Shown one piece after another: positions 1,633 to 14,646 of a stretch of DNA of 14,831 bases (the first letter of the stretch is position 1; every line of letters begins with the position of its first letter). Origin of the DNA: Candidatus Woesearchaeota archaeon (GTDB lineage Archaea > Nanobdellota > Nanobdellia > SCGC-AAA011-G17 > VGLX01); assembly GCA_016866645.1 (NCBI GenBank), contig VGLX01000010.1, positions 1 to 14,831 of the forward strand, read 5' to 3'. The position numbers and the translations under genes are program-made. Under the pieces are notes generated by a model. The model ran no database searches, had not been told where the DNA came from, and was given only the letters and a program-made list of their open reading frames with translations.

Positions 1633-2460
1633 TTAGAACCTCCATGTCAGCCCTACGCCGACTGTGTGGTTTTTTGATTTTCCTTGGTTATAGTCATAGC
1701 CTACGTTTACTTTTACTTTTTCGCTGAGCTTGTAAGAGAGTCCTGCTCCGGCATTCACCGCTGTCTCGTCGCTTTTGCCCGATTCTTTCCCAACTCCGAC
1801 GTAAGCTTTTCCGCTTAGTTTCTTGTTGAACTCATGATTCCCTGATACGTAACCCATGGTTGTGTTAGTATCCTTAATAGATTCTCTCCAGTGGGTCCCT
1901 TTGACGTCTATCCAGTCCTTGTCGCCAAGGTAGTATCTTAACCCTAGGTTTGTTGAGTAGTCTTTGTCTCCGTTGGTTAATGCTGAGCCTTTAACATCAC
2001 CTATTATCGTTACTGGTTTTTTTATTATGTATTCTCCGTTTACTCCTAGTCCAAATGAAGCGACGTTTTTGTTCCCAAATTCTCTTATTGGGTCGACATC
2101 GTCTTTGACTTCTAAACGTCCGGATAAGTATAAGTCCTCGCTCATCTTCTTCCCTACTTCGAGTTTGATAGTTTCGTCGTTTCCTCTTGCTTTTTTTCCA
2201 TCTATCTTTCCGAAGTGGTCTGCGTGGCTTCCTTGGATGTTTATGTTGAAATCGTTCTTTTTCATGTTTAAGTCTATTATTTCTTTTATAGAAGTCACGT
2301 TAGAATCTGGCCCCTGCCTGGATGTAACTTCGACTTGTGCTCCAACGGATTCGAATTCTATAAACTTCTTGTCTTCTGCCCTCGCGAGCATAGAGTATCC
2401 GAAGATTGTTGCAACTGCTGTTAAGGTTGCTATTCCTGTTTTTATCTTGTTGAGTTTCAT
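1633..2460 (-). CDS. Secreted beta-strand-rich protein with outer-membrane beta-barrel-like signature (function unknown)
   Basis: 275 aa. The signal peptide MKLNKIKTGIATLTAVATIFGYSMLARA|EDKK has an AxA cleavage motif. About 13 short amphipathic alternating segments follow, e.g. ASFGLGVNGEYII, YSTNLGLRYYLG, KAYVGVGKES, AGAGLSYKLS, VKVNVGYDYN. The C-terminus HTVGVGLTWRF ends in Phe, like the bacterial OMP beta-signal. Its stop codon is 1 nt from the glycosyltransferase start. Confidence 0.6.
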   Translation of the reverse strand: MKLNKIKTGIATLTAVATIFGYSMLARAEDKKFIEFESVGAQVEVTSRQGPDSNVTSIKEIIDLNMKKNDFNINIQGSHADHFGKIDGKKARGNDETIKLEVGKKMSEDLYLSGRLEVKDDVDPIREFGNKNVASFGLGVNGEYIIKKPVTIIGDVKGSALTNGDKDYSTNLGLRYYLGDKDWIDVKGTHWRESIKDTNTTMGYVSGNHEFNKKLSGKAYVGVGKESGKSDETAVNAGAGLSYKLSEKVKVNVGYDYNQGKSKNHTVGVGLTWRF

Positions 2461-2845: not shown

Positions 2846-3181
2846 TTACCACCAGTAGTCCTCTAGCATACGATTCCAATAGTATAATTCCGTAGCTTTC
2901 TTTCTGTTTTCTTCATTTATTTTCTTGGTTTCTTTTAGTCTTGATTCTATGTTGTCTATTTCTTTCATCAGTTTAGGTATTCTTTCAGGCTCTATTTTCG
3001 TATAGTGTTCTTGTACGATGTTTCTTAGTCTGTCACAAAGATAGCTGTTTGCTGCTAACAGCCTTTCATCAGGTGTTTTTCTGTATTGCTTTTGTACATA
3101 GGCTAGTACGATGCATGGTATTGTTGCTTGGGCCATGTATTTTAAGGATTCAACTGGTTTTTTTATTGCTGGTATTTTCAT
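2846..3181 (-). CDS. Small charged, probably helical hypothetical protein; first gene of the glycan operon
   Basis: 111-aa ORF with charged, heptad-like C-terminal half (KLMKEIDNIESRLKETKKINEENRKKATEL). The N-terminus MKIPAIKKPVESL partly matches the MK[ILV]P..F.P...L peptide of the four genes at 6415-9209. A G-rich tract (GGGGGG) lies 5 nt upstream of the ATG. Confidence 0.65.
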   Translation of the reverse strand: MKIPAIKKPVESLKYMAQATIPCIVLAYVQKQYRKTPDERLLAANSYLCDRLRNIVQEHYTKIEPERIPKLMKEIDNIESRLKETKKINEENRKKATELYYWNRMLEDYWW

Positions 3182-3323: not shown

Positions 3324-3785
3324 ATGAACTATTACGATAACATCGCCAAAAGCTACAACGAGCTACACGAAGAGGAACAAAAGAAAAAATTGGATATAAT
3401 ATCTAAAGAATTAAAGCCAAAAGGTACGATACTGGATATAGGCGCTGGCACAGGAATCTCTGCCAAATACTTCAAAAATATCGCACTTCTAGACCAGTCT
3501 ATAGAGATGCTGAAACAATCAAAAGGGCTAAGAATCGTGGGCAAGGCAGAAAGCCTGCCGTTCAAAGACAAAACATTCAATAATATAATATCCATAACCA
3601 GCCTGCACCATACAAACATAAAACGAGCGATAAAAGAGATAAAACGAATAAGCAAGAAAAACTGCAAGTATAGTTTTAGCATCCTTAAAAGGGCGCAGAA
3701 ATACTCGCTAATCAAGCAAGAGCTTCAAAACAGTTTTAACCTAAGGGAAATAGACGAAGAAAAGGATATTATACTGATAAGCTGA
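3324..3785 (+). CDS. Class I SAM-dependent methyltransferase (Methyltransf_11-like)
   Basis: The ILDIGAGTGISAKYF motif I (GxGxG) is followed by the LPFKDKTFNNIISITSLHH region. I chose the start at 3324 (MNYYDNIAKSYNELH, a typical N-terminus for this family) rather than the track start at 3285, because a TATA-like box lies 23 nt upstream of 3324. Confidence 0.85.
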   Translation: MNYYDNIAKSYNELHEEEQKKKLDIISKELKPKGTILDIGAGTGISAKYFKNIALLDQSIEMLKQSKGLRIVGKAESLPFKDKTFNNIISITSLHHTNIKRAIKEIKRISKKNCKYSFSILKRAQKYSLIKQELQNSFNLREIDEEKDIILIS

Positions 3786-3800
3786 TACCCTAGAAAGCAG

Positions 3801-3812
3801 AAAAGTTTAAAA
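3801..3812 (+). promoter_or_regulatory. BRE/TATA-like element AAAAGTTTAAAA
   Basis: Lies 24 nt upstream of the ATG at 3837, which is leaderless geometry. It matches the AAA-NN-TTTA(W) pattern seen at the other promoters in the window. Confidence 0.5.
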
Positions 3813-3836
3813 CTCTAAACTTCTTAAACAGAAGAT

Positions 3837-4442
3837 ATGCAATCACCAACAGACGCGGCCAAATCATACAGCGGAGCCGACATACTCCGCAAAGGACTCG
3901 ACCTAAGCCAGTCAAAAGATCCTAACGTATCAACAGCTGAATCAAAAACAGGCGTTTTCTATGACGGAATATACATCAAAAGGAGAAAAGACTTAGAAAA
4001 GCTGGATGACAACGGCAAATACCGCTCATTCACCATAGAGTTCAGGCTTAAGACCAAGAAAAAAAGCGAAGACGTCTTCAACGAATACATACCTTTGTCC
4101 ACCAGGAAGATAGAAGCAGAAATATCCAAAGAAGGATTTGAAGTTTTAAAAGAGCAAAAAGGCACAAGGATATCCTTTACGTTCATCAAAAAAGGGTTCT
4201 TCTCAAAAACCAACATAGGCACGCTTATCTATTCATGCAACGACACAGTCCACGGAGTAAAATTCTCTAAATCATTAACCTTCTTGGAAGGAAGGCATAT
4301 CAACGGATATTATATCCGTGAGACTTACCAAGACTTGAAAGACGAGCTAGACCTGATAGTCTCAGCTAGGAAACGTAAAGAAAAACCTCAAGAAAAAGAT
4401 ATCAAAAAACCTGTTATCCCGTCGGTGATTAAAAGGGTATAG
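3837..4442 (+). CDS. Hypothetical protein, 201 aa, Lys-rich, no recognisable motif
   Basis: A long ORF with a promoter-like element at the canonical distance. I see no signal peptide and no family signature. Confidence 0.65.
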   Translation: MQSPTDAAKSYSGADILRKGLDLSQSKDPNVSTAESKTGVFYDGIYIKRRKDLEKLDDNGKYRSFTIEFRLKTKKKSEDVFNEYIPLSTRKIEAEISKEGFEVLKEQKGTRISFTFIKKGFFSKTNIGTLIYSCNDTVHGVKFSKSLTFLEGRHINGYYIRETYQDLKDELDLIVSARKRKEKPQEKDIKKPVIPSVIKRV

Positions 4443-4455
4443 GACAATAAAATTG

Positions 4456-6336
4456 TTAACCAAACATGTTGAAGAGGCCTTTGCCTTTGCCGTCGTCTTT
4501 CTTCCTTTCTTCGTATCTTTTAGCGCGGTAAGGCTCTGAAGCGTAATAATGCTTGACTTCCCTCTCTTTCTCCTCAGTCTCTCTGACGCTCCTAAGCATC
4601 CTTGACCTGAAGTCCTCTATGCTTTCTTCTGTAGAAGAGAATGTGGATTTTCTTGGGCTGTTCTCCTTTAATGCTCTAAGCTCTTTAAGCATGGTCTCAC
4701 CTTCCCTCTTATTCTTGCACATCGCTACTTCAGCGTTCCTTAAATGCTCTTTCTTAAAAATAGTCAAGTAAATCAGGGTGGTTATTATGAGCGCTAATAA
4801 TGCTGAGTATATTATATTCAAAGAAGTTTTGTTCTTGCCTAGGACGATTATGTTATCAAACTGGTTAGGCATCACCGCGTTGCCGGTGACTGCTATCATA
4901 TACTCCCCGGCAGGTGCTTCTTGAGTAAGATCCACTACTAACACTGCCCCCGGTTTCAGTGAAACTTCTTTCTTTAGCGTGAACTCTCCATTGTTAAGGC
5001 TTACATCTACAGCTTCGTTATAATCAACATTGCCCGTGTTTAATATGTATAAGTTCTGACCTTCAAGCTGCACATCAACAGACTTGACTTTTTCTACTAT
5101 GAATTCCTGCCCAGTTGTCAAATCTGCGTAACTCGCCTTGAGCTTCCATGATCCTGGAATAGAATATTCTGGAAGAGGGATTATTATCTTGCCCTCAGAC
5201 TCGACGGACCCCAAGTATATCGACCTGCCGTTAGCATCTATCAGCTCTATTCTTAACTGGTCTATTATCTCATCACCTGCTTGGTCATACACATACGCAG
5301 CAGCTTCTAACACGTCTTTCGGCTTAAGCTCTGGTTGGAATACGTTAATCTTAATCTTAGTCGGTACTGCTTCGATGTTTATGCTCCTTTGAGTGCTTCC
5401 TTGGTTTCCGCTTTGGTCTTCATTGAAAAAGAACCTCAAAACATGAGTCCCTGTCTCAATATCTGCAGGTATCCTTAATTCGTATAAGAACTTACCGTCC
5501 CTTATCATAGCAGTGTAAGCCTCAGTGCCTAGCTTAATCTGCAGGACACCTTCTTTCATAGGCTCTCCAGATAATGTGTTGACTTCCCCGAGTATCTGTA
5601 ACAAGTCTCCTGGCAGGATTTTAGACTGCAGCGGCTCTACGAACACGTGCACTTGGTCTACGATGCTGAACATGGCAACATTTTCGAAAAGCTTCTTATT
5701 TCCGAAAACGTCAGTTACTAAAACGTCAACTGTGTAGTCTCCAGGGATGTTCCCCATGACAGTGTAGTAATACTTCAACTTGCCCTGGCTTACTGCTACG
5801 TCTTTGGCATAGTAAGTCTTTTCATCAGTCTTGAAATAGACCGTTGCTAGACCGTTTATCTGGGCACCAGTTTCTTTCATGCTCGTAAGATAACCGTAAA
5901 GAGTCAAAGTGTTTCCTAACTGGAGCTGTAAAGGATTTACCTGGAAGTCACCGTATGCCTTAAGCTCATCAGTTACTATAAACCTGTTAGAAAAGACCTC
6001 ATCAACTATCACGCCATTCGAGACTAATGAAGCTTTTACTACGCAGTTGCCCTCAGCAGTCGAAGGGATGATAGCATCGTCTATAACGATTGGTTTAGCA
6101 GTTTTTGGGCTTAAGCTTATCTCCTTGGTAAAAATGTCAAAGCTTACCTTATCACATATCAGCCTGAACCTTAATATGCCGTCTTCTACTGTGACATCTT
6201 CCACTATCTTAGAGTCTATCAGCAAAGGCTCGCCTTTATTATAATATTTTCCAAATGTGTTTAGGTCTATCTTTGCAAGAACAGCCGGCATCAATAGCAC
6301 AGCTAATACTAGTAACAGCATTATCCTCCTTTTCAT
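4456..6336 (-). CDS. Large type-I surface protein with repeated beta-sandwich-like modules, C-terminal TM anchor and ~100-aa charged cytoplasmic tail
   Basis: I chose the start at 6336 (MKRRIMLLLVLAVLLMPAVLAK, a signal peptide) because a TATA-like box lies 24 nt upstream. Short motifs resembling those of Ig/CARDB-like domains recur: IPGDYTVDVLV, IPGSWKLKASY, APAGEYMIAVTG. The C-terminal TM is SLNIIYSALLALIITTLIYLTIF, followed by a K/E/R-rich tail. Confidence 0.75.
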   Translation of the reverse strand: MKRRIMLLLVLAVLLMPAVLAKIDLNTFGKYYNKGEPLLIDSKIVEDVTVEDGILRFRLICDKVSFDIFTKEISLSPKTAKPIVIDDAIIPSTAEGNCVVKASLVSNGVIVDEVFSNRFIVTDELKAYGDFQVNPLQLQLGNTLTLYGYLTSMKETGAQINGLATVYFKTDEKTYYAKDVAVSQGKLKYYYTVMGNIPGDYTVDVLVTDVFGNKKLFENVAMFSIVDQVHVFVEPLQSKILPGDLLQILGEVNTLSGEPMKEGVLQIKLGTEAYTAMIRDGKFLYELRIPADIETGTHVLRFFFNEDQSGNQGSTQRSINIEAVPTKIKINVFQPELKPKDVLEAAAYVYDQAGDEIIDQLRIELIDANGRSIYLGSVESEGKIIIPLPEYSIPGSWKLKASYADLTTGQEFIVEKVKSVDVQLEGQNLYILNTGNVDYNEAVDVSLNNGEFTLKKEVSLKPGAVLVVDLTQEAPAGEYMIAVTGNAVMPNQFDNIIVLGKNKTSLNIIYSALLALIITTLIYLTIFKKEHLRNAEVAMCKNKREGETMLKELRALKENSPRKSTFSSTEESIEDFRSRMLRSVRETEEKEREVKHYYASEPYRAKRYEERKKDDGKGKGLFNMFG

Positions 6337-6360
6337 TACTATAGTATAGTACATATTAAG

Positions 6361-6372: not shown

Positions 6373-6414
6373 ATGGAACTTAAGAATTCCGATTTTTTCT
6401 ACAGGAACAGAGGG

Positions 6415-7236
6415 TTATCTTGATTTCAACATCAGCTGGTTAGCCAGCCAAGCCGGTATAGGCTGAATGGCAGTTATCCCACGATAGCTATCAAAAGAGT
6501 ACCTTTCTTTCCATTCGATGCTCAAAAGCTTCTTCTTAAACCATCTACGCTTGGTCTCATAAACAGGGTAGTATTGGCCTGCGTCGTACAGCTTGTTGTT
6601 GAAGCTGAACATCGTGAAAGGTATGCCATCCCTCTTAGCTACCACCTTATTCGTTAAAGTGTCCCTTATCTTATTATCAGTAGCCCCATCATACAGGTTG
6701 CTGTCATGTGAGCACAAAGAGTACACCCATTCCTTCCGCTCAGCGACTGGTTTGTCTTCAAGCGTTTTCATAACCTGCTTATAACTGCCAGCGTCATAAA
6801 TCTCCCCGTTATGTGAGCATAATGCCTTAACCCACCCGTCCCTCTCAGCTATTACTTTACCATTGTCTGTTCGGTAGATCTTTTTCAGTCCACCGTCATA
6901 CATCACGCCGTCATGGACGCATAAAGAGCTTACCATATGCCCCCTCTTGGCTATTTGCTTGTTGTTCAAGGTGTCTATTACCTGGTTGTAATCCCCTGTG
7001 TCGAACAATAAGTTGTCATACAAACAGAACGCGTTGATATAATTCGCCCTCCTAGCTACGGTTACAGGCTTATCCATGTCAGGCATCCAGACCATGATGT
7101 CACTTATCCATCCTCCGTGCTCGACGTAACATAAAGCGATGGCTAGGCAAGTGGGCAAGTAAGGTTCTGAGTTGCTGAGCTCTTCGATCTTCTCGTCAAG
7201 CTCCTTCCCTGGCAGGAAGGTTTTAGGAAGTTTCAT
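6415..7236 (-). CDS. Tagged repeat protein D: N-terminal MKLPKTFLPGKELDEKIEEL peptide plus five ~35-aa repeats; paralogue of 7239-8021
   Basis: The track start at 7242 is TTG. The ATG at 7236 gives MKLPK..., which matches the three upstream genes, and lies 2 nt after the upstream TGA. The repeat core is xVAERxxWVxALCSHxGxLYDAGxYxxVxxTLxxK. The C-terminal ITAIQPIPAWLANQL resembles VTALEMIPVSLVKNL of the paralogue. Confidence 0.8.
   Translation of the reverse strand: MKLPKTFLPGKELDEKIEELSNSEPYLPTCLAIALCYVEHGGWISDIMVWMPDMDKPVTVARRANYINAFCLYDNLLFDTGDYNQVIDTLNNKQIAKRGHMVSSLCVHDGVMYDGGLKKIYRTDNGKVIAERDGWVKALCSHNGEIYDAGSYKQVMKTLEDKPVAERKEWVYSLCSHDSNLYDGATDNKIRDTLTNKVVAKRDGIPFTMFSFNNKLYDAGQYYPVYETKRRWFKKKLLSIEWKERYSFDSYRGITAIQPIPAWLANQLMLKSR
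6547..7068 (-). repeat. Five tandem intragenic ~35-aa repeats (protein level) in gene D
   Basis: The conserved Cys/Phe sits at residues 71, 106, 140, 175 and 210. The (Y/F)D(x)G motif sits at 78, 113, 147, 182 and 217. The period is therefore 34-35 residues. Confidence 0.7.
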
Positions 7237-7238
7237 TA

Positions 7239-8021
7239 TCAACTCTTTTTTCTGAAATTGACCAAGTTTTTGACAAGGCTTACAGGTATCATCTCTAATG
7301 CGGTTACTGTCGAGTATCCGAAATCAAGCAATAGCTTGTCGCTGAAAACGTCTGTCACCATGCCGCTGGTCCCGCCTTCTAACAAAGTCCCTCTGAACGA
7401 GCATAAGGCGTAGATTATATGCGCCCTTTCAGCCACTGTCTCGTTAGTGTAAGTGTTTTTTACGCCCATATAATGCCCTGCGTCGTAAAGGCTGCCTTGG
7501 TGGGAGCATAATGCCCTTATCGTGTCGTCTCTTTTTGCGACAAATTTGTTTTTCATAGTTGAGTAGACGCATTGTTCTGTGCCAGCGTCGTAAAGCTCGC
7601 CGTTATGGGTCCTTAAGGCGAAGACACAGCCTAGCCTCTCTTTCAGCTTTGAGTCTCCTGAGTATATGGTCCCCAGGTTGGAATATACTAGTTCGCCGTT
7701 ATAATGGCATAACGAATAGGCTGCAGATAATTGTGTCAGCAGCTCATCATCTGTTAATGCATTGCTTACTCTGGTGTAGGCTCCGCAATCGTATAGTTGG
7801 CTGTCATGATAACAGAAGTCTATCACCATGTATTTTCTCTCGTTGACAAGCTCAGGCCTGATCATCGAAGGCTCCCAGACGTATATCTTCCCCCTGTTAA
7901 CTGCTGTGCTGTCCTCTACTGCTATCGCTAATCCTTGCTCGTTGAAGTCAGGTGTTGAGAGAAGAACATCAACTTTGCCTTCCAAGTCTTTATCCGGCAT
8001 GAAGCTGTCTGGAAGTTTCAT
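7239..8021 (-). CDS. Tagged repeat protein C: N-terminal MKLPDSFMPDKDLEGKVDVLL peptide plus ~35-aa repeats; paralogue of 6415-7236
   Basis: 260 aa. Repeats include FCYHDSQLYDCGAY, SLCHYNGELVYS, ALRTHNGELYDAG, ALCSHQGSLYDAG and ALCSFRGTLLEGG. It has the same domain order as gene D. Confidence 0.8.
   Translation of the reverse strand: MKLPDSFMPDKDLEGKVDVLLSTPDFNEQGLAIAVEDSTAVNRGKIYVWEPSMIRPELVNERKYMVIDFCYHDSQLYDCGAYTRVSNALTDDELLTQLSAAYSLCHYNGELVYSNLGTIYSGDSKLKERLGCVFALRTHNGELYDAGTEQCVYSTMKNKFVAKRDDTIRALCSHQGSLYDAGHYMGVKNTYTNETVAERAHIIYALCSFRGTLLEGGTSGMVTDVFSDKLLLDFGYSTVTALEMIPVSLVKNLVNFRKKS
7335..7853 (-). repeat. Five tandem intragenic ~35-aa repeats (protein level) in gene C
   Basis: The Cys/Arg position falls at residues 70, 105, 137, 172 and 207. 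The YD/YS/LE position falls at 77, 112, 144, 179 and 214. Confidence 0.65.
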
Positions 8022-8044
8022 CGCTAATGATACTCGTCAGAAGC

Positions 8045-8056
8045 TTAAATAATTTT
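8045..8056 (-). promoter_or_regulatory. Possible internal promoter AAAATTATTTAA (minus strand) for genes C-D
   Basis: Located in the 35-nt spacer between genes B and C, 23 nt upstream of the ATG at 8021. Confidence 0.4.
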
Positions 8057-8506
8057 CTAAACAGTAACAATAAACACTCGATCGAATAATGGCAAGTATT
8101 CCAATTTCTTTTTCAGAGATTCGGTAGTCTCGTGGTCGATATAAACTATCTGTATTTTACTTAAAAAAATAGCCTTGTCCAATAGTTCAACAACATCTTT
8201 TCTTCCAAACTCTTTAGTATGATAATCATATGTTTCATAATCTAGTTCCGACTTTGAATCGGTTATTACATTCTTAATCATGCGTTTTACTTCTTCATAC
8301 TTGCTTTCTTTATGCTGGTCTGATATCCAGAATATCTTTATATGCCCTCTTTTCATGGTATCCAAGTTACATCTCAATTGATGATAAATAATATTATGAA
8401 GGAAAACGTCTTGAAAACTGTCTTTAGCCTCAGTTTTTTCTTCTGAAAGCATACCAATTTTATCGTCTAAGCATTTTTCTGGCACAAATATGTCAGGTAT
8501 TTTCAT
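8057..8506 (-). CDS. Tagged protein B (150 aa): N-terminal MKIPDIFVPEKCLDDKIGML peptide plus unknown alpha/beta-looking body; low-GC cassette
   Basis: I prefer the ATG at 8506 over the track start at 8590. It restores the shared N-terminal peptide, has a GAGG 5 nt upstream, and removes an 74-nt out-of-frame overlap with gene A. Confidence 0.75.
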   Translation of the reverse strand: MKIPDIFVPEKCLDDKIGMLSEEKTEAKDSFQDVFLHNIIYHQLRCNLDTMKRGHIKIFWISDQHKESKYEEVKRMIKNVITDSKSELDYETYDYHTKEFGRKDVVELLDKAIFLSKIQIVYIDHETTESLKKKLEYLPLFDRVFIVTV

Positions 8507-8516
8507 AATGTCCTCT

Positions 8517-9209
8517 TCATCTGTCGAACAAAAGTAGGGTGGCGCTGCTGCAGAAGTAGAAGTTGCCGCTGATGTCTGAGCGATAGGCATCGTTACCTAG
8601 TGAGAGCTCAAACAGCTCGTCTTGGCTTGTGTTGCTCCTTAAATAAACGCCCATCATTCTTTTTCTGCCGTTACCATTAAATACAAAATCCACATATTCT
8701 GCTAACTTGTCCTTATCATTATTCATCGCTGCGAGCCAGAACTTATGGTTCTCGGCCTCTTTTCTTGTAAGCCTTTGGTTGTATTTGTCTTTTGTTATGT
8801 CAAGCTCTATGCCTTGCTCAGCATCGTAATTGATTGGTATGAAATCTTCGTCGAATCCTTGTTGGATGTTTTCCAATGTAGAAGACCTTTGAACTATCTT
8901 GAATTTGGCGCTTTTTGCCTTGTAGGCTATGCCTGTGACTGAGTCTATCTGGGTATTGAACAATGTTGAGTTCTTACCGTGAAGTTCATAATCAATAATT
9001 CTTGCTGTTATGTTATCAAAGAATGTGAAAGGCTTCTGTCCTTGTTCTTTTAGGTACGCGATGCATCCCGCAAATGTAAGGTCATGTATAAATTTGATAT
9101 TTTCCTTTAACATAAAGTTTGTGAGTGGTATCGTTTTTTCTTGCTCTAGTAATCCTCTTATATTAACTTCTAAACTTCTCTCCGGAAGGAATATGTTTGG
9201 TACCTTCAT
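8517..9209 (-). CDS. Tagged protein A (230 aa): N-terminal MKVPNIFLPERSLEVNIRGLL peptide plus unknown body
   Basis: The start lies 1 nt after the TAA stop of the vWA gene (TAAGATG). I recognise no family motif in the body. Confidence 0.8.
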   Translation of the reverse strand: MKVPNIFLPERSLEVNIRGLLEQEKTIPLTNFMLKENIKFIHDLTFAGCIAYLKEQGQKPFTFFDNITARIIDYELHGKNSTLFNTQIDSVTGIAYKAKSAKFKIVQRSSTLENIQQGFDEDFIPINYDAEQGIELDITKDKYNQRLTRKEAENHKFWLAAMNNDKDKLAEYVDFVFNGNGRKRMMGVYLRSNTSQDELFELSLGNDAYRSDISGNFYFCSSATLLLFDR

Positions 9210-9210
9210 C

Positions 9211-11100
9211 TTACAGCCGTTCTTCTCTGTCTCTTTCTTTGCCTTCGTAAACCTCTTTGGCCTTGCCTATGACCAGGTCGAAGAGGTCGTCTTGAGAATT
9301 CACGTAGAATACTTCGCAGCCTATGTCTTCTAGTTTCTTGACGTAGTCTTTGTATCCTGAGCCTATGCAGAATATCGCTCCTCGGTTCTTCTCGTTCAGG
9401 TCCATGACTGCTTTCAAGTAGGGGAATGCTGAGTCGAAGTTGTGGAATCCTGTGTCTGTTATTAGCAAGAACTGTTTCGGCTCTGAAGGGTTCTTGACCC
9501 ATTCGAGCATGTCCTCTTGTGGGAGTACTGTGCCTCCACCCTTGTAGGTCAGTATGACCTCATCTATAGCGTCTATGTCTTCTGTCTCGTCTAGAGTGGT
9601 TGTGTCTCTTCCTTTGGTGCTCTGGTCCTCTCCTGAGAAGTTCTTCACAGCCACTTTTACTCCTACGTTCTTCGCAGAATGCGCAGCTGCCATGGCTGCT
9701 AGGACTGCCGGAGCTATCGACTGGTTAGGATTAGTCATGCTTCCTGATGAGTCTAGGATTATGTAGAGGTCTGGCGGCCTGTCGCCTTCCTTGAATCCGA
9801 AAGTCTCCCTGTATCTCCATTTTGACGTCGTGACTCCAGGCACTGCCCTTCCTGCTGTTTGTAACGTGTACTGCAGGTCTAAGCTTTGCGGCGGGTCGCT
9901 AGGGTTCCATCTCTTCGGAGTGAACGGGTGCGCTTTGCCGGCGACTGTGTGCATCGGCCTGAACTTGACAGAGTAGTTCTCTGCTAAGTCACGGTATAAC
10001 CACTTGTTAGCTTTCTCTTCAGAGTCGAGTATTCCTGAGCCTACCATAAGCTCTTTGTATTCTTGGATTATGTTCTTGTTATCCTTACCTAATTTATTAG
10101 CTAGGCCTTTGACTTTCTCTTCTATCTCTTTCTCTAGCTGTTTCATCTTCTTCTCTAAGTCTTTCTTGTCCTTGTCTTGGCCTTGGCCGTCTTTCTTGTC
10201 ATCTTTCTTTGAGGACTTGCCTTTCTTGCCTTTCATGCCCTGCAATTGTTTTAGCATCTGCTTGAGCCTCTTAGCGTCTCCGCTGGATTCGCTTTCGAAT
10301 ATCTGCAGGTCTTTTCCTCCTTTTCCGTCTTCTTTTACGAAAGGCGCGATTATCTGGGTGAACCTGTATACCCGTTTCTCCCAGTTCCTGCAATCATACA
10401 TGTTGTCTTTGACCAATGAGTGTATCCTTTCAGCTGCTCGTTCCTGGTCTTCGCTGAACTTCTTCTTGTCGACCCATCTTCCATCCAGGTTCCAGAGCTT
10501 CTCGTAGACCCTCATGTAGACGTCCCAGCTCTTCCTCGGCGCTTTTTTCATCTCAGGGTCTGATTCTCTTCTCTGTTTGAAACGGTCGTATAAGAAGCAT
10601 ATCTTGTCCTTGTTGTCAGGCATGCCTTTCTCGTCCCCGTGCTCGACTATGTAGTTGTTGTCTACTATGTCTTCGAATATGTTTGAAAGGTTAGCGCCTA
10701 ATTCTTGGGCTTGGAAGCCGTCGGCTATGCCCTGTGATTTCAAAGCTTTGGCTGAGTTGTGAGTGAGAACGAGCTTTGTTAGCAGGTCCGTTGATATCAT
10801 CGCGTAATGGCCTACTCCGTGGAGCTCTAGTATCTCAACTGTGTCTTCCAATTCTTTCTGGTCTTTTATCATCAGGTGCTTCATCACGTGAGGCAGGCTT
10901 ACGTAAGTCTTCTTGTCGAAGTATGTCAAGAATTCCGGGGATGACTGCGGGTCTTTCAAAAGCTGCTTGGCCTCTTCAGTAACCGCCGGATCGTTATCCA
11001 GGTTGTTCTCAGTGGCCACTTTAGGCTTCGGAAGCATTGCGTAGAACCAGAACTTCCTGACTTTCTCCCAGATTTCCTGCTCTTTCTCTTCACTTATCAT
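9211..11100 (-). CDS. 629-aa protein with C-terminal von Willebrand factor A (vWA) domain with complete MIDAS; long N-terminal region of unknown fold
   Basis: LYIILDSSGSM carries the DxSxS motif, with DSSGS encoded at 9739-9753. The downstream GGGT and LLITDTG motifs supply the Thr and Asp MIDAS ligands. The vWA domain covers about residues 444-612 (9265-9771). Residues 280-345 form a K/D/E/G-rich low-complexity, coiled-coil-like linker (10066-10263). Confidence 0.9.
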   Translation of the reverse strand: MISEEKEQEIWEKVRKFWFYAMLPKPKVATENNLDNDPAVTEEAKQLLKDPQSSPEFLTYFDKKTYVSLPHVMKHLMIKDQKELEDTVEILELHGVGHYAMISTDLLTKLVLTHNSAKALKSQGIADGFQAQELGANLSNIFEDIVDNNYIVEHGDEKGMPDNKDKICFLYDRFKQRRESDPEMKKAPRKSWDVYMRVYEKLWNLDGRWVDKKKFSEDQERAAERIHSLVKDNMYDCRNWEKRVYRFTQIIAPFVKEDGKGGKDLQIFESESSGDAKRLKQMLKQLQGMKGKKGKSSKKDDKKDGQGQDKDKKDLEKKMKQLEKEIEEKVKGLANKLGKDNKNIIQEYKELMVGSGILDSEEKANKWLYRDLAENYSVKFRPMHTVAGKAHPFTPKRWNPSDPPQSLDLQYTLQTAGRAVPGVTTSKWRYRETFGFKEGDRPPDLYIILDSSGSMTNPNQSIAPAVLAAMAAAHSAKNVGVKVAVKNFSGEDQSTKGRDTTTLDETEDIDAIDEVILTYKGGGTVLPQEDMLEWVKNPSEPKQFLLITDTGFHNFDSAFPYLKAVMDLNEKNRGAIFCIGSGYKDYVKKLEDIGCEVFYVNSQDDLFDLVIGKAKEVYEGKERDREERL

Positions 11101-11136: not shown

Positions 11137-12567
11137 TTATTTCTTCCTCTTTATCTTGTACTTCGTTGCTACGTAGTGGTGTATCTTCTGCAGCCAGCAG
11201 GCTAATGAGTACTTTATAGGGTCGTCGTGGCCTGATATTTCTTGTAAGCCGTGGACTTCTACTTTGTTGACGAAGTCTTCTGCTGGCATCTCGCCTTTCT
11301 CTACTTTCTCGAAGGCGTTGACTATAGCTCCGTAGTTCTCGAATATGCCGTCTTTGGCTATGGCCCTTTTGAACCCTTCTTCTGATGTCTTCATTATCAG
11401 TCCTATAAGGCCGAGCCTGTCGTTGACTATTCCTGGGCTTATCGCTTGTGCCGTCGCTGTCGGCTCTAGCTTATGGAATGTGGTGTAAGGGACTATTGTC
11501 TTGACTGTTTCTGTCGTGACCTTGTCCTCCCCTAGGAACCATGCTAGTGCTCTGCAGTAATCGTAAGTCGCTAATACGCTTCTTACTGACAGTTCGTTCT
11601 TCGTGAGCCTACAGGCCATAGTGTCCATGTAGTATTTGCATTCTGCCGGTGACTTGCAAAGCGCGTCTGGCTGCTTGTATTCGCAGCTTCCTTTGTTCAT
11701 GAACGCTATTGCGCTTGGGTTGAACTCTTGAGACGATCCCCTCATGCAGAAGTTTATCTGTGACATTAGGTAGTGGATGTAGTTCCTGGCTTCTTTCTCG
11801 AATGGTATCGCGGCTATTTCTTTTCTTATCTTTTCCAGGTCTTCTTTTGAGAGCTTAAGCTCTGCTGCCAGGTCTAAGGCTTTGGTTAGTTCTCCTCTGT
11901 CGGCAATCTGCCATTGTGTCAGCTGGTCAGGTATCGGCACTTTGACTGCTGCTCCGAACCTGTCGACGAATGGCGGTGTCATGACGAAGTTTCCTGCGTC
12001 TTGGTAGTTGGCTGTCGCGAATATCGGCCCTTCTGTCATGTGGAATATGTAGTCCATGTATTTGACTATCCCCCTGTCTACTGCGTGGTATAGCATGTCT
12101 GACTTGTCCGCTGGCAGCCTGTTGACTTCGTCTATTATGTGGACTGGGCAGGTGCAGAAGTTTCTCCATCTGACTTCTTCCTCTCCGTCTTTGACTAGTT
12201 TTCCTGTGTGAAGCCTTGCTATCATTTTCTCTTCTGTCTGTTCAGGGTTTCCGTGGATTTCTGAGTTGAGAATATCTTCTATCGGGACGTTGTGTATGAA
12301 GTGCCCTACGTATTCCGCTACTGTTGTTTTTCCTGTCCCAGGAGCTCCTCTGTAGAGCAATGAGCCTCTTTTCATCAATGAGGTTAATGTTGTGAATAGA
12401 AGTACTGGTTCGTAGCATTTCTTCTCAGGCATTTTCATCGTTACCTTGCTGTTGGCGTCTATAGGGACTTCTGAGTAGTCGCCTACGATGATGTAAGATG
12501 ATCCCATGTAGAATCCTTTGTCTTGTATATAGCTCATGATGTTCTCTAGCTTTTCTTGGTGTTTCAT
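11137..12567 (-). CDS. MoxR-class AAA+ ATPase, atypically long (476 aa) with N- and C-terminal extensions and a Cys-rich insert
   Basis: Walker A is GAPGTGKT (12325-12348), Walker B is VHIIDEVNR, sensor-1 is IFATAN. It also has PPFVDRF and the lid/sensor-2 region ELSVRSVLATYDYCRALAWFLGEDKVTTETV, which matches the MoxR pattern (GxSxRa...A.A.l.Gr..V..eDv). Confidence 0.9.
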   Translation of the reverse strand: MKHQEKLENIMSYIQDKGFYMGSSYIIVGDYSEVPIDANSKVTMKMPEKKCYEPVLLFTTLTSLMKRGSLLYRGAPGTGKTTVAEYVGHFIHNVPIEDILNSEIHGNPEQTEEKMIARLHTGKLVKDGEEEVRWRNFCTCPVHIIDEVNRLPADKSDMLYHAVDRGIVKYMDYIFHMTEGPIFATANYQDAGNFVMTPPFVDRFGAAVKVPIPDQLTQWQIADRGELTKALDLAAELKLSKEDLEKIRKEIAAIPFEKEARNYIHYLMSQINFCMRGSSQEFNPSAIAFMNKGSCEYKQPDALCKSPAECKYYMDTMACRLTKNELSVRSVLATYDYCRALAWFLGEDKVTTETVKTIVPYTTFHKLEPTATAQAISPGIVNDRLGLIGLIMKTSEEGFKRAIAKDGIFENYGAIVNAFEKVEKGEMPAEDFVNKVEVHGLQEISGHDDPIKYSLACWLQKIHHYVATKYKIKRKK

Positions 12568-14088: not shown

Positions 14089-14646
14089 ATGACCGTGAAA
14101 ACAGTACTTGATGGAGAAAAAGTGTATTTGAGGAAACTGAAGTATTCTGACGCTAAAGACATTTACGAGAATGTTAAACATAAAGAAGTTGTGAAATGGA
14201 CATTGAACATACCTCATCCTTATCCGAAAAACGGCGCTATCAAGTTCATAAGGCATAAGCACTCTGCGAGAAGGAAGAAAGAAAGCTACGCGTTTGGGAT
14301 AGTGCCAAAAGACTATGGTAAGGTTGTTGGCGTAATCGACTTGTTTAAGATAGACTGGAAGAACAAGAATGCTGAGCTAGGATACTGGTTGGGAAAAAAG
14401 TATTGGGGTAAAGGTTTGATGACAGAATCTGTAAAGCTAATGCTTGGTTTTGCATTCGAAGACTTAAATCTTCATAAGGTTAAGGCGGACTTGTTTGAGA
14501 ACAACCATGGATCTAAAAAGGTCTTAGAAAAGTCCGGATTCAATCTTGAAGGGAAAATTAAAGAAGGAAGATTCAGGTATGGTAAATGGCAAAATGAGTT
14601 AGTTTATGGGGTATTATCTAAAGACTACCTCGCTAAGAAGAATTAG
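14089..14646 (+). CDS. GNAT family N-acetyltransferase (RimJ/RimL-like)
   Basis: 185 aa. The N-terminal EKVYLRKLKYSDAKDIYE and the core GYWLGKKYWGKGLMTESVKLMLGFAF (acetyl-CoA-binding Q/RxxGxG/A-like) are followed by ENNHGSKKVLEKSGF. Confidence 0.85.
   Translation: MTVKTVLDGEKVYLRKLKYSDAKDIYENVKHKEVVKWTLNIPHPYPKNGAIKFIRHKHSARRKKESYAFGIVPKDYGKVVGVIDLFKIDWKNKNAELGYWLGKKYWGKGLMTESVKLMLGFAFEDLNLHKVKADLFENNHGSKKVLEKSGFNLEGKIKEGRFRYGKWQNELVYGVLSKDYLAKKN

Follow-up and report, generated by a model that had tools for sequence, protein, structure and literature searches.

MoxR-type AAA+ ATPases that act together with a protein that has a domain of the von Willebrand factor A (vWA) type have been described in several settings. 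[quoted passage not shown] Effector-associated domains (EADs) are a feature of MoxR–vWA ‘ternary’ conflict systems, and the MIDAS site has been described as binding extended or unstructured peptides (Kaur, Burroughs, Iyer and Aravind 2020, PMC7159879). In multicellular bacteria, MoxR-associated ‘antigen sensor’ loci with diversity-generating retroelements (DGRs) consist of a MoxR ATPase, a vWA domain and a DGR-diversified binder of the C-type lectin (CLec) type, and DGRs of DPANN archaea were judged there to lack an association with domains of conflict systems (Doré et al. 2024, PMC10907252). Here we describe a 21-aa N-terminal peptide, referred to below as the tag, that heads four consecutive proteins (A to D) encoded next to a MoxR–vWA pair in a contig of a Candidatus Woesearchaeota (DPANN) metagenome-assembled genome (MAG; contig VGLX01000010.1), and we discuss it as a candidate docking peptide for that pair. 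The contig, 14,831 nt long and called the window throughout, is also represented by identical pieces in several public metagenome assemblies.

Proteins A to D are all encoded on the minus strand of the window, on which the gene order is MoxR-type AAA+ ATPase, vWA protein, A, B, C, D and an Ig/MG2-like membrane protein. The starts (A, 9209; B, 8506; C, 8021; D, 7236) are the same in independent gene calls on the identical public contigs, giving products of 230, 149, 260 and 273 aa, respectively; for B, gene callers place the start at 8506 versus 8590 for the longer open reading frame (ORF). The tags, read from the translation, are MKVPNIFLPERSLEVNIRGLL in A (9147–9209), MKIPDIFVPEKCLDDKIGMLS in B (8444–8506), MKLPDSFMPDKDLEGKVDVLL in C (7959–8021) and MKLPKTFLPGKELDEKIEELS in D (7174–7236), and they score 42.0, 48.3, 41.5 and 43.0 bits, respectively, with a hidden Markov model (HMM) built from 121 tags. 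No other start codon of the window yields a complete tag: internal starts within the tags of B and C reach 24.6 and 19.9 bits and the best unrelated one 7.6 bits, so that an earlier note on this DNA, which had pointed to an N-terminal peptide common to the four proteins, is borne out. The four N-termini align without gaps under the motif MK[ILV]PxxF[ILVM]PEKxLExK[ITV]ExLL, and M1, K2, P4, F7, P9, L13 and L20 are invariant among them, as that note had listed. A fifth candidate in the window, at the start of a 111-aa ORF (2846–3181, minus strand), was rejected at only 4.7 bits; its start, MKIPAIKKPVESLKY, is superficially tag-like (M1, K2, P4, P9, L13), making this ORF either a non-member or a badly decayed member.

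An exhaustive search of 1.84e9 representative proteins with a profile of only the four 30-aa N-termini from the window returned 61 proteins at a library-wide E≤1e-3, with values as low as 1e-10. All but two (59/61) aligned from residue 1; the other two align from residue 7 and residue 10, respectively, probably owing to start calls placed too far upstream. Every one of the 60 sequences retrieved is a bona fide tagged protein, those with a named source all come from Nanoarchaeota or Woesearchaeota, and one (FJZ53_02610) is encoded on another contig of the genome to which the window belongs. A homology search with 42-aa N-termini gave no match at E≤10. Six-frame translation of related loci (~0.96 M residues) contains the core K[ILVM]PxxF[ILVM]Px[KR] 140 times, and on 139 of these occasions it directly follows ATG, GTG or TTG. 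The motif was also back-translated into a degenerate 40-nt pattern (~40 bits) and used to scan three DNA collections. One genome per species (596 Gb) yielded 21 matches: 17 in the Nanoarchaeota MAG JAUYDG01, two in a second Nanoarchaeota MAG, JAHIPG01, and two in bacteria, the last two lying off ORF starts and corresponding to the expected chance level. JGI metagenomes gave 61 matched loci, often with tandem arrays of 2–5, and viral contigs gave no match, hence no evidence that tagged genes are viral. ORF calling in the matched loci produced 139 unique tagged proteins (90–444 aa, median 177), and the tag HMM at ≥25 bits found 181 distinct ORFs, at least 22 of them on 14 contigs of JAUYDG01. 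The tag is thus confirmed as an N-terminal module that is real, overwhelming in its statistics and without earlier annotation, and no description of it was found in the literature searched.

Across the family the consensus is M-K-[LIV]-P-K-[TI]-F-[IVLM]-P-E-K-[DN]-L-[ED]-x-K-[ITV]-E-x-L-L. Conservation of individual positions was judged in 58 tags that had not been chosen via the DNA pattern, and in these P4 and F7 are invariant (58/58), followed by E/D10 (47/58), P9 (46/58), K16 (43/58), L13 (42/58), K/R11 and L20 (41/58 each) and E/D14 (40/58). Residue 14, previously singled out as an invariant acidic position, is therefore invariant only among the four window proteins, and E/D10 is at least as conserved as E/D14 across the family. 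Codon use in 130 distinct tag DNAs is nearly unconstrained at third positions (P4: CCT 67, CCA 48, CCG 8, CCC 7; P9: CCA 44, CCT 44, CCG 34; at least five Leu codons for L20), meaning that selection acts on the peptide. Protein-level selection, which the earlier note had deduced from the four copies, is confirmed on this larger set, and the free synonymous sites rule out an explanation at the RNA level or by gene conversion.

In an AlphaFold2 (AF2) model of D, residues 1–9 have a predicted local distance difference test score (pLDDT) below 50, residues 11–21 form a helix at pLDDT 66–74, and neither segment packs on the body of the protein. The model agrees with the layout proposed earlier, an extended segment followed by an amphipathic acidic helix, one face of which comprises L13, position 17, L20 and L21, and it would make the tag a flexible extension on the D β-propeller. 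The tag is hydrophilic and acidic and shows no hydrophobic h-region, twin arginine or prepilin motif that would indicate Sec, Tat or class III export. A strongly hydrophobic segment (19-residue hydropathy) was found in only five of 115 tagged proteins, each time near the C-terminus.

The bodies that follow the tag form ~37 BLAST clusters, and among the 17 families with at least three members hhalign recognised a single related pair (families 4 and 11). The bodies of A, B and C/D belong to separate families (hhalign probability <2%), in keeping with the view that the tag sits on unrelated proteins, although this holds only in part within the window, where C and D are paralogs (34% identity). 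The possibility that all bodies represent one fast-diverging superfamily was ruled out at hhalign sensitivity, with the A family reaching only 1.9% against family 1. Protein A (8517–9209, minus strand) represents the most abundant tagged family (23 sequences) and has no sequence match in Pfam, NCBIfam or the PDB. Protein B (8057–8506, minus strand) is a small soluble protein of tagged family 9 (e.g. P0103, P0155) without a significant family match in Pfam, NCBIfam, PADLOC or PHROGs. Protein D (6415–7236, minus strand) is modelled as a six-bladed kelch/WD40-like β-propeller (pLDDT 89; predicted template modelling score 0.86), with a Foldseek TM score of ~0.63 against the kelch domains of Keap1/KLHL proteins, and protein C (7239–8021, minus strand) is its β-propeller paralog, the two having LYDxG blade repeats in common. 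PADLOC, in particular, matched none of A–D, and searches against NCBIfam, PADLOC and PHROGs assigned no family to A–D or to nearly any other tagged body.

Among 115 tagged proteins, Pfam recognised little beyond a radical SAM enzyme and GXGXG β-helix proteins; a methyltransferase match is probably due to chance, and no toxin family rose above noise. Zn-ribbon-like proteins are also found among the tagged bodies. Two tagged families have an apparent C-terminal transmembrane hairpin followed by a Lys-rich tail, a topology that, as read from the sequences, would put the N-terminal tag in the cytoplasm. One tagged protein (locus L039, 516–1286) is a homolog of the archaeal DGR variable protein AvpA (PDB 5IOO, E 1e-64). 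The alignment begins past the tag, at residue 34 of this protein and residue 7 of AvpA, so that the tag is an addition to a known fold that also occurs in its absence. The radical SAM enzyme (L016, 2846-3706, minus strand; Pfam E 2.7e-23) has the cluster motif CNAKCKYC, and tag residues 1–14 are joined straight to its core. Two untagged homologs are present in other loci, and here an enzyme seems to have acquired the tag.

Comparison of loci links the tag to the adjoining MoxR–vWA pair. In every related locus the vWA gene has a MoxR ortholog upstream of it, and the order MoxR–vWA–(0–3 tagged genes)–D-type propeller recurs in six of these loci (L001, L005, L007, L090, L091 and L092). The first gene after vWA is tagged, or has a degenerate tag, in L001, L005, L090, L091 and L092; in L007, tagged homologs of C and D are found behind two untagged ORFs. 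Of the tagged partners in the operon D is the most constant, with homologs (L005, L007, L090, L091 and L092) that come after the vWA gene either directly or behind other tagged genes, and C is syntenic in L005, L007 and L090. The pair is present in all seven tag-bearing genomes or contigs in which this could be checked, JAHIPG01 included. The most distant arrangement is that of L093, a contig of 60% G+C with a vWA protein 29% identical to that of the window and the order MoxR–F1–F1–F1–vWA–F1, where the four F1 genes encode homologs of tagged family 1 (E down to 3e-38). Their products start with MKPLI.[VI].[ML]TPEERAER…LL.PRP, in which M1, K2, P4 and E14 line up with the tag, and this N-terminus is a diverged form of it. 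The tag may have arisen at the N-terminus of a MoxR–vWA partner encoded in the operon and later passed, in one Woesearchaeota/Nanoarchaeota clade, to many other bodies throughout the genome. In another, distant homologous operon (L096, 2917-4607), the two genes after vWA encode leucine-rich repeat paralogs that share an N-terminal region of their own (~150 aa), which suggests that the pattern of a vWA gene with paralogous partners behind it, alike at the N-terminus, extends more widely.

No other recurrent neighbour emerged as a receptor or translocon, as only housekeeping genes (tRNA synthetase, TBP, Hjc, Lrp) were seen near tagged genes. A gas-vesicle link was considered and dropped, GvpA being near one locus only: a GvpA-like gene (PF00741) is located at 12102-12326 of L007 (also 3041-3265 of L008), ~1.3 kb downstream of the D homolog.

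The MoxR-type ATPase of the window (476 aa; 11137–12567, minus strand) has a Walker A motif (GAPGTGKT) and matches Pfam AAA_5 (E 8e-7) and AAA_lid_2 (E 2e-6). The vWA protein (629 aa; 9211–11100, minus strand; AF2 pLDDT 85) consists of an N-terminal helical domain, a K/E-rich linker and a C-terminal vWA domain, which scores above the Pfam cut-off for VWA and contains an intact MIDAS site (D450-S-S-G-S454, nt 9739–9753, minus strand, plus GGGT and TDTG). The top PDB match in Foldseek is the vWA domain of NorD in the NorQ–NorD complex (9qh8_G), and a PDB sequence search with the vWA family profile returned nothing useful. The N-terminal domain includes a degenerate HExxH motif, H94-G-V-G-H98 (nt 10807–10821, minus strand), a feature that the earlier note did not mention. 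In an alignment of 39 homologs, H94, N140, D144, E200, D450, S452, G453, S454, T524 and D549 are invariant. The 29 distant homologs (Janthinobacterium, Actinokineospora and metagenomic sequences) keep HE, nearly all with the full HExxH (AHE[IV]GHH); in the tag-rich clade all ten sequences read HG.GH or HAAGH, with Gly or Ala in place of the catalytic Glu, and in the vWA protein of L093 the second His of the motif is Tyr. An active zincin requires HExxH with the catalytic Glu plus a third metal ligand, and the window protein lacks this combination. In the AF2 model the HGVGH motif is in a long helix behind three short strands, a topology that appears compatible with a zincin, and the domain resembles an as yet unannotated zincin-like one, its catalytic Glu having disappeared in the tag-rich clade.

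The low-confidence, K/E-rich linker of the vWA protein (residues ~311-344; window ~10069-10170, minus strand) contains KDLEKKMKQLEKEIEEKVKGL, which shows weak similarity to the tag's helical half, at 7.6 bits in this protein and as much as 12 bits in orthologs. This segment may serve as a pseudo-tag within the protein or as an autoinhibitory mimic, or be a chance product of low complexity.

Some of the tagged families are targets of DGRs, another point absent from the earlier note. In L093 a reverse transcriptase (RT) gene (6486–7517) follows the last F1 gene, and a 72-nt template repeat (TR; 6392–6463) lies just upstream of it. This TR differs from the variable repeat (VR; 3699–3770) at the 3′ end of the third F1 gene by 12 mismatches, all 12 on TR adenines, as is characteristic of a DGR. 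L093 thus contains a complete DGR inside a MoxR–vWA operon, targeting a family-1 paralog with a diverged tag, and unites MoxR, vWA, DGR and tag-like partners in one operon. Two of its paralogs share 91% DNA identity at the 5′ end, a sign of local gene conversion. L053, found only via the tag, has a similar layout: behind an A-family gene (5249–5941, minus strand) come first a TR rich in Asn codons (from ~4991, minus strand; translation GLRALVLNNDNNNSNANGNNNLNNNARFASNN) and then a homologous RT (3765-5006, minus strand; phmmer E 3e-119), the called ORF of which begins inside the TR. About 23 of 25 core mismatches between VR and TR fall at TR adenines, aside from a one-codon indel, on account of which this copy may not be a currently active target.

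Columns that are hypervariable near the C-terminus of 15 A-family members, window protein A included, coincide with the Asn codons of this TR. In the window itself only a VR-like scaffold is present (C-terminal part of A, ~8520–8624, minus strand, from the family alignment), without RT or TR, and on these sequence grounds protein A is assigned to a DGR variable-protein family. Together with family 1 and the AvpA homolog, this makes three tagged families that are DGR targets, and most tagged families show no DGR evidence. The match to 5IOO supports a C-type lectin fold in the tagged AvpA homolog; PDB sequence searches with profiles of the A family and family 1 returned no match. The previously described DGR variable proteins of nano-sized archaea (AvpA, PDB 5IOO; Paul 2015, Handa 2016) share with the present set a tagged AvpA homolog and TR/VR pairs next to RT genes; AvpA as deposited has no tag, and the literature searched mentions neither a tag nor a MoxR–vWA link for archaeal DGR targets. 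With respect to the bacterial MoxR-associated DGR loci, L093 has the same list of parts, and differs in that the archaeal variable proteins are separate and have the N-terminal tag.

Functionally, the EADs of the ternary systems come closest to the tag. Both are constant terminal modules on varied effector or signalling bodies, encoded in the operon and elsewhere, and EADs are thought to recruit their bodies to the MoxR–vWA core. They differ in that EADs are folded, homotypic domains of ~80–100 aa with one copy on a core component, whereas the tag is a linear peptide of 21 aa. The homotypic logic of EADs was rejected for the tag, which the HMM did not detect in MoxR (N-terminus, 0.3 bits) or in the vWA protein (best start codon within the gene, 7.6 bits, at an internal Met of the linker), and recognition must therefore be heterotypic. 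Nor was a third component of the VMAP, iSTAND or FtsH kind identified, and the window has no VMAP or iSTAND gene. The window pair shares with CbbQ–CbbO and NorQ–NorD a MoxR AAA+ ATPase with Walker A and AAA lid and an adjoining vWA adaptor, C-terminally placed and with a complete MIDAS, the best structural match being the vWA domain of NorD. In contrast to the single client of each of those pairs, the tag is a portable terminal peptide on dozens of proteins; moreover, the N-terminal domains of the CbbQO/NorQD adaptors have no HExxH, and the window MoxR, at 476 aa, has a C-terminal extension.

The explanation favoured here, which we rate at about even, is that the tag is a docking peptide through which binder, sensor or effector proteins are recruited to MoxR–vWA by putative direct binding. 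It would be a portable short linear motif on many unrelated cytoplasmic proteins of one Woesearchaeota/Nanoarchaeota clade, with residues 1–9 predicted to form an extended Pro/Phe-rich segment and residues 10–21 a three-turn acidic amphipathic helix (face L13, I/V/T17, L20 and L21). The likely receptor is the single MoxR AAA+/vWA pair encoded beside A–D, and the vWA protein offers two putative peptide-binding devices, the intact MIDAS site and the HExxH-like domain, which may act as a pseudo-peptidase cleft. That the vWA protein rather than the ATPase pore receives an acidic, flexible peptide is plausible by analogy with CbbO and NorQD and with MIDAS sites that bind extended peptides; threading of the tag through the AAA+ pore is less likely, since the NorQD pore holds the finger of the vWA protein. 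Tagged clients would include DGR binders (the A family, family 1 and the AvpA-like CLec protein), β-propellers (C and D), GXGXG β-helices, proteins anchored in the membrane and at least one enzyme. By this means the tag would couple interchangeable sensor, binder and effector modules to one ATP-driven remodelling core, an arrangement that may represent a split version of the bacterial MoxR–vWA ternary sensing or conflict systems. We infer physical binding to the vWA protein, the pairing of particular tag residues with particular sites, and an output in sensing or host interaction. A bolder form of the proposal seems doubtful at present, namely that a DPANN clade has evolved a general cytoplasmic ‘address tag’ by which dozens of unrelated clients per ~1-Mb genome, many of them DGR-hypermutated, are captured and remodelled by a single machine of MoxR and a pseudo-peptidase vWA protein.

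Several observations weigh against docking at MoxR–vWA. The tag is not confined to the operon, as only one of 79 loci found purely by the tag holds MoxR/vWA and most tagged genes are dispersed, and the operon of JAHIPG01 has no adjoining tagged gene. Gene context therefore points to the pair only via the conserved operon. Synteny among the Woesearchaeota loci is inherited rather than independent, leaving essentially L093, and more weakly L092, as independent support. The homologous MoxR–vWA operons of Janthinobacterium (L095) and of L096 have other downstream partners and no tag. The acidic positions vary across the 58 tags. Finally, Pfam returned only a non-significant M48 match for the N-terminal domain (E 0.084, in a bacterial homolog), and its assignment as zincin-like is based on the HExxH motif, the conserved downstream Glu/Asp and the topology of the model. 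The proposal of the earlier note that the peptide is a handle for the adjacent pair gains comparative support from the six syntenic loci and L093; residue 14 as a MIDAS ligand, also proposed there, is a hypothetical pairing. The analogies drawn in that note with microcompartment cargo and secretion-system effectors find no support. Cargo peptides of microcompartments and encapsulins are likewise short amphipathic helices on a flexible linker at the terminus of unrelated cargo, but have no counterpart of the Pro/Phe-rich first half of the tag, and Pfam matched no shell gene (BMC, EutN, encapsulin/HK97-type) in the gene calls, which covered the window and ~0.5 Mb of related loci. Secretion is disfavoured by the lack of translocon genes, the lack of a hydrophobic region and the presence of clearly cytoplasmic bodies such as the radical SAM enzyme. 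A likeness to polymorphic effector cassettes is also not upheld: polymorphic toxins have a long trafficking N-domain, a C-terminal toxin domain and an adjacent immunity gene, the tag has only 21 aa, and the toxin-family and PADLOC searches described above were negative.

Among the rival explanations, an address label for non-Sec sorting or export, to the cell surface or to the host cell of an episymbiont and independent of MoxR–vWA, would suit a DPANN lineage with a large, fast-evolving, ORFan-rich set of tagged genes in tandem arrays, most of them far from MoxR–vWA. A role in host interaction has been proposed for the DGR variable proteins of nano-sized archaea (PMC5006420), and an Ig/MG2-like surface protein is conserved in the operon. 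Such a label is nevertheless improbable, given that no translocon-like gene recurs by the tagged genes, that the tag lacks hydrophobic or twin-arginine features, that a radical SAM body and some topologies place it in the cytoplasm, and that L093, the presumed ancestral context, is a cytoplasmic MoxR–vWA operon. Alternatively, tagged proteins could bind each other or a common scaffold through the tag as a shared assembly element, with no recognition by MoxR–vWA. The conserved hydrophobic helix face, tandem and translationally coupled arrays that suggest co-expression, and the weak look-alike of the helical half in the vWA linker are all compatible with assembly, which is still unlikely for a helix of just about three turns that is disordered in the monomer model; the strict position at residue 1 would also go unexplained, and no scaffold gene was identified.

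A leader or pro-peptide, recognised and cleaved, ancestrally by the HExxH domain of the vWA protein, would account for a strictly N-terminal, flexible tag, and distant vWA homologs do retain AHE[IV]GHH with an invariant downstream Glu. It is decidedly unlikely in view of the replaced catalytic Glu in 10/10 sequences of the tag-rich clade and the Tyr in L093; no cleavage-site motif is evident past residue 21, and homologs with intact HExxH, as in Janthinobacterium, are without tag. A free and flexible N-terminus marking many unrelated proteins could also serve as a degron or a signal for co-regulation, one that a protease or other general factor (proteasome/PAN, Lon) reads. This would leave the conserved MoxR–vWA operon link unexplained and gives no clear reason for all DGR-diversified binders to bear a degron; no protease gene is associated with the tag, and we consider the idea highly improbable. 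The chance that the similarity is accidental, due to recent gene conversion or an RNA- or DNA-level signal (a shared 5′ regulatory element) is negligible. Apart from the similarity first noticed, only the 91% identity of two L093 paralogs at their 5′ ends speaks for it; the synonymous sites are free, E-values extend to 1e-10, 139/140 core motifs stand at start codons and 596 Gb contained only two stray matches.

Should the bolder form, a general address tag read by MoxR–vWA, be correct, this would be the first MoxR–vWA system with a portable linear motif as substrate code, and part of a modular, split-gene apparatus for innate sensing or host interaction that has no described archaeal counterpart. 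MoxR–vWA recognition is known for a few dedicated clients only, and a portable peptide code would make it directly testable and its clients listable from genomes. Archaeal DGR variable proteins would be tied to an ATP-driven partner, and the bacterial combination of DGR-diversified sensor, MoxR and vWA would extend to DPANN archaea in a split, tag-mediated form. For DPANN biology, the tag delineates a gene set that is large, evolves fast, had no earlier annotation and probably bears on symbiont–host or symbiont–virus interactions.

Downstream of D, the Ig/MG2-like protein (632 aa; 4456–6354, minus strand; weak MG2/Big_13 matches) is a type I membrane protein with a signal peptide, a C-terminal transmembrane helix and a charged cytoplasmic tail. 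Homologs are found directly downstream in L005, L090, L091 and L097, and the protein is possibly part of the system. Two genes upstream of MoxR, the window encodes a GNAT acetyltransferase (14089-14646, plus strand; Acetyltransf_3, E 4e-33), which belongs to the family of RimJ/RimL-type N-terminal acetyltransferases. Further GNAT genes are present near the operon in L091 and L097, in a neighbourhood that is not conserved, and any connection of this gene with the N-terminal tag is pure speculation. Towards the other end of the window, a 275-aa protein (1633-2460, minus strand; also L090, 6986-7813) has a signal peptide and the C-terminal sequence ...GLTWRF and scores 29.3 bits against Pfam OMP_b-brl (curated cut-off 28.7). 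An outer-membrane-type β-barrel of this bacterial family is unexpected in an archaeon; the gene lies beside a GT2 glycosyltransferase gene, an arrangement kept in a second MAG.

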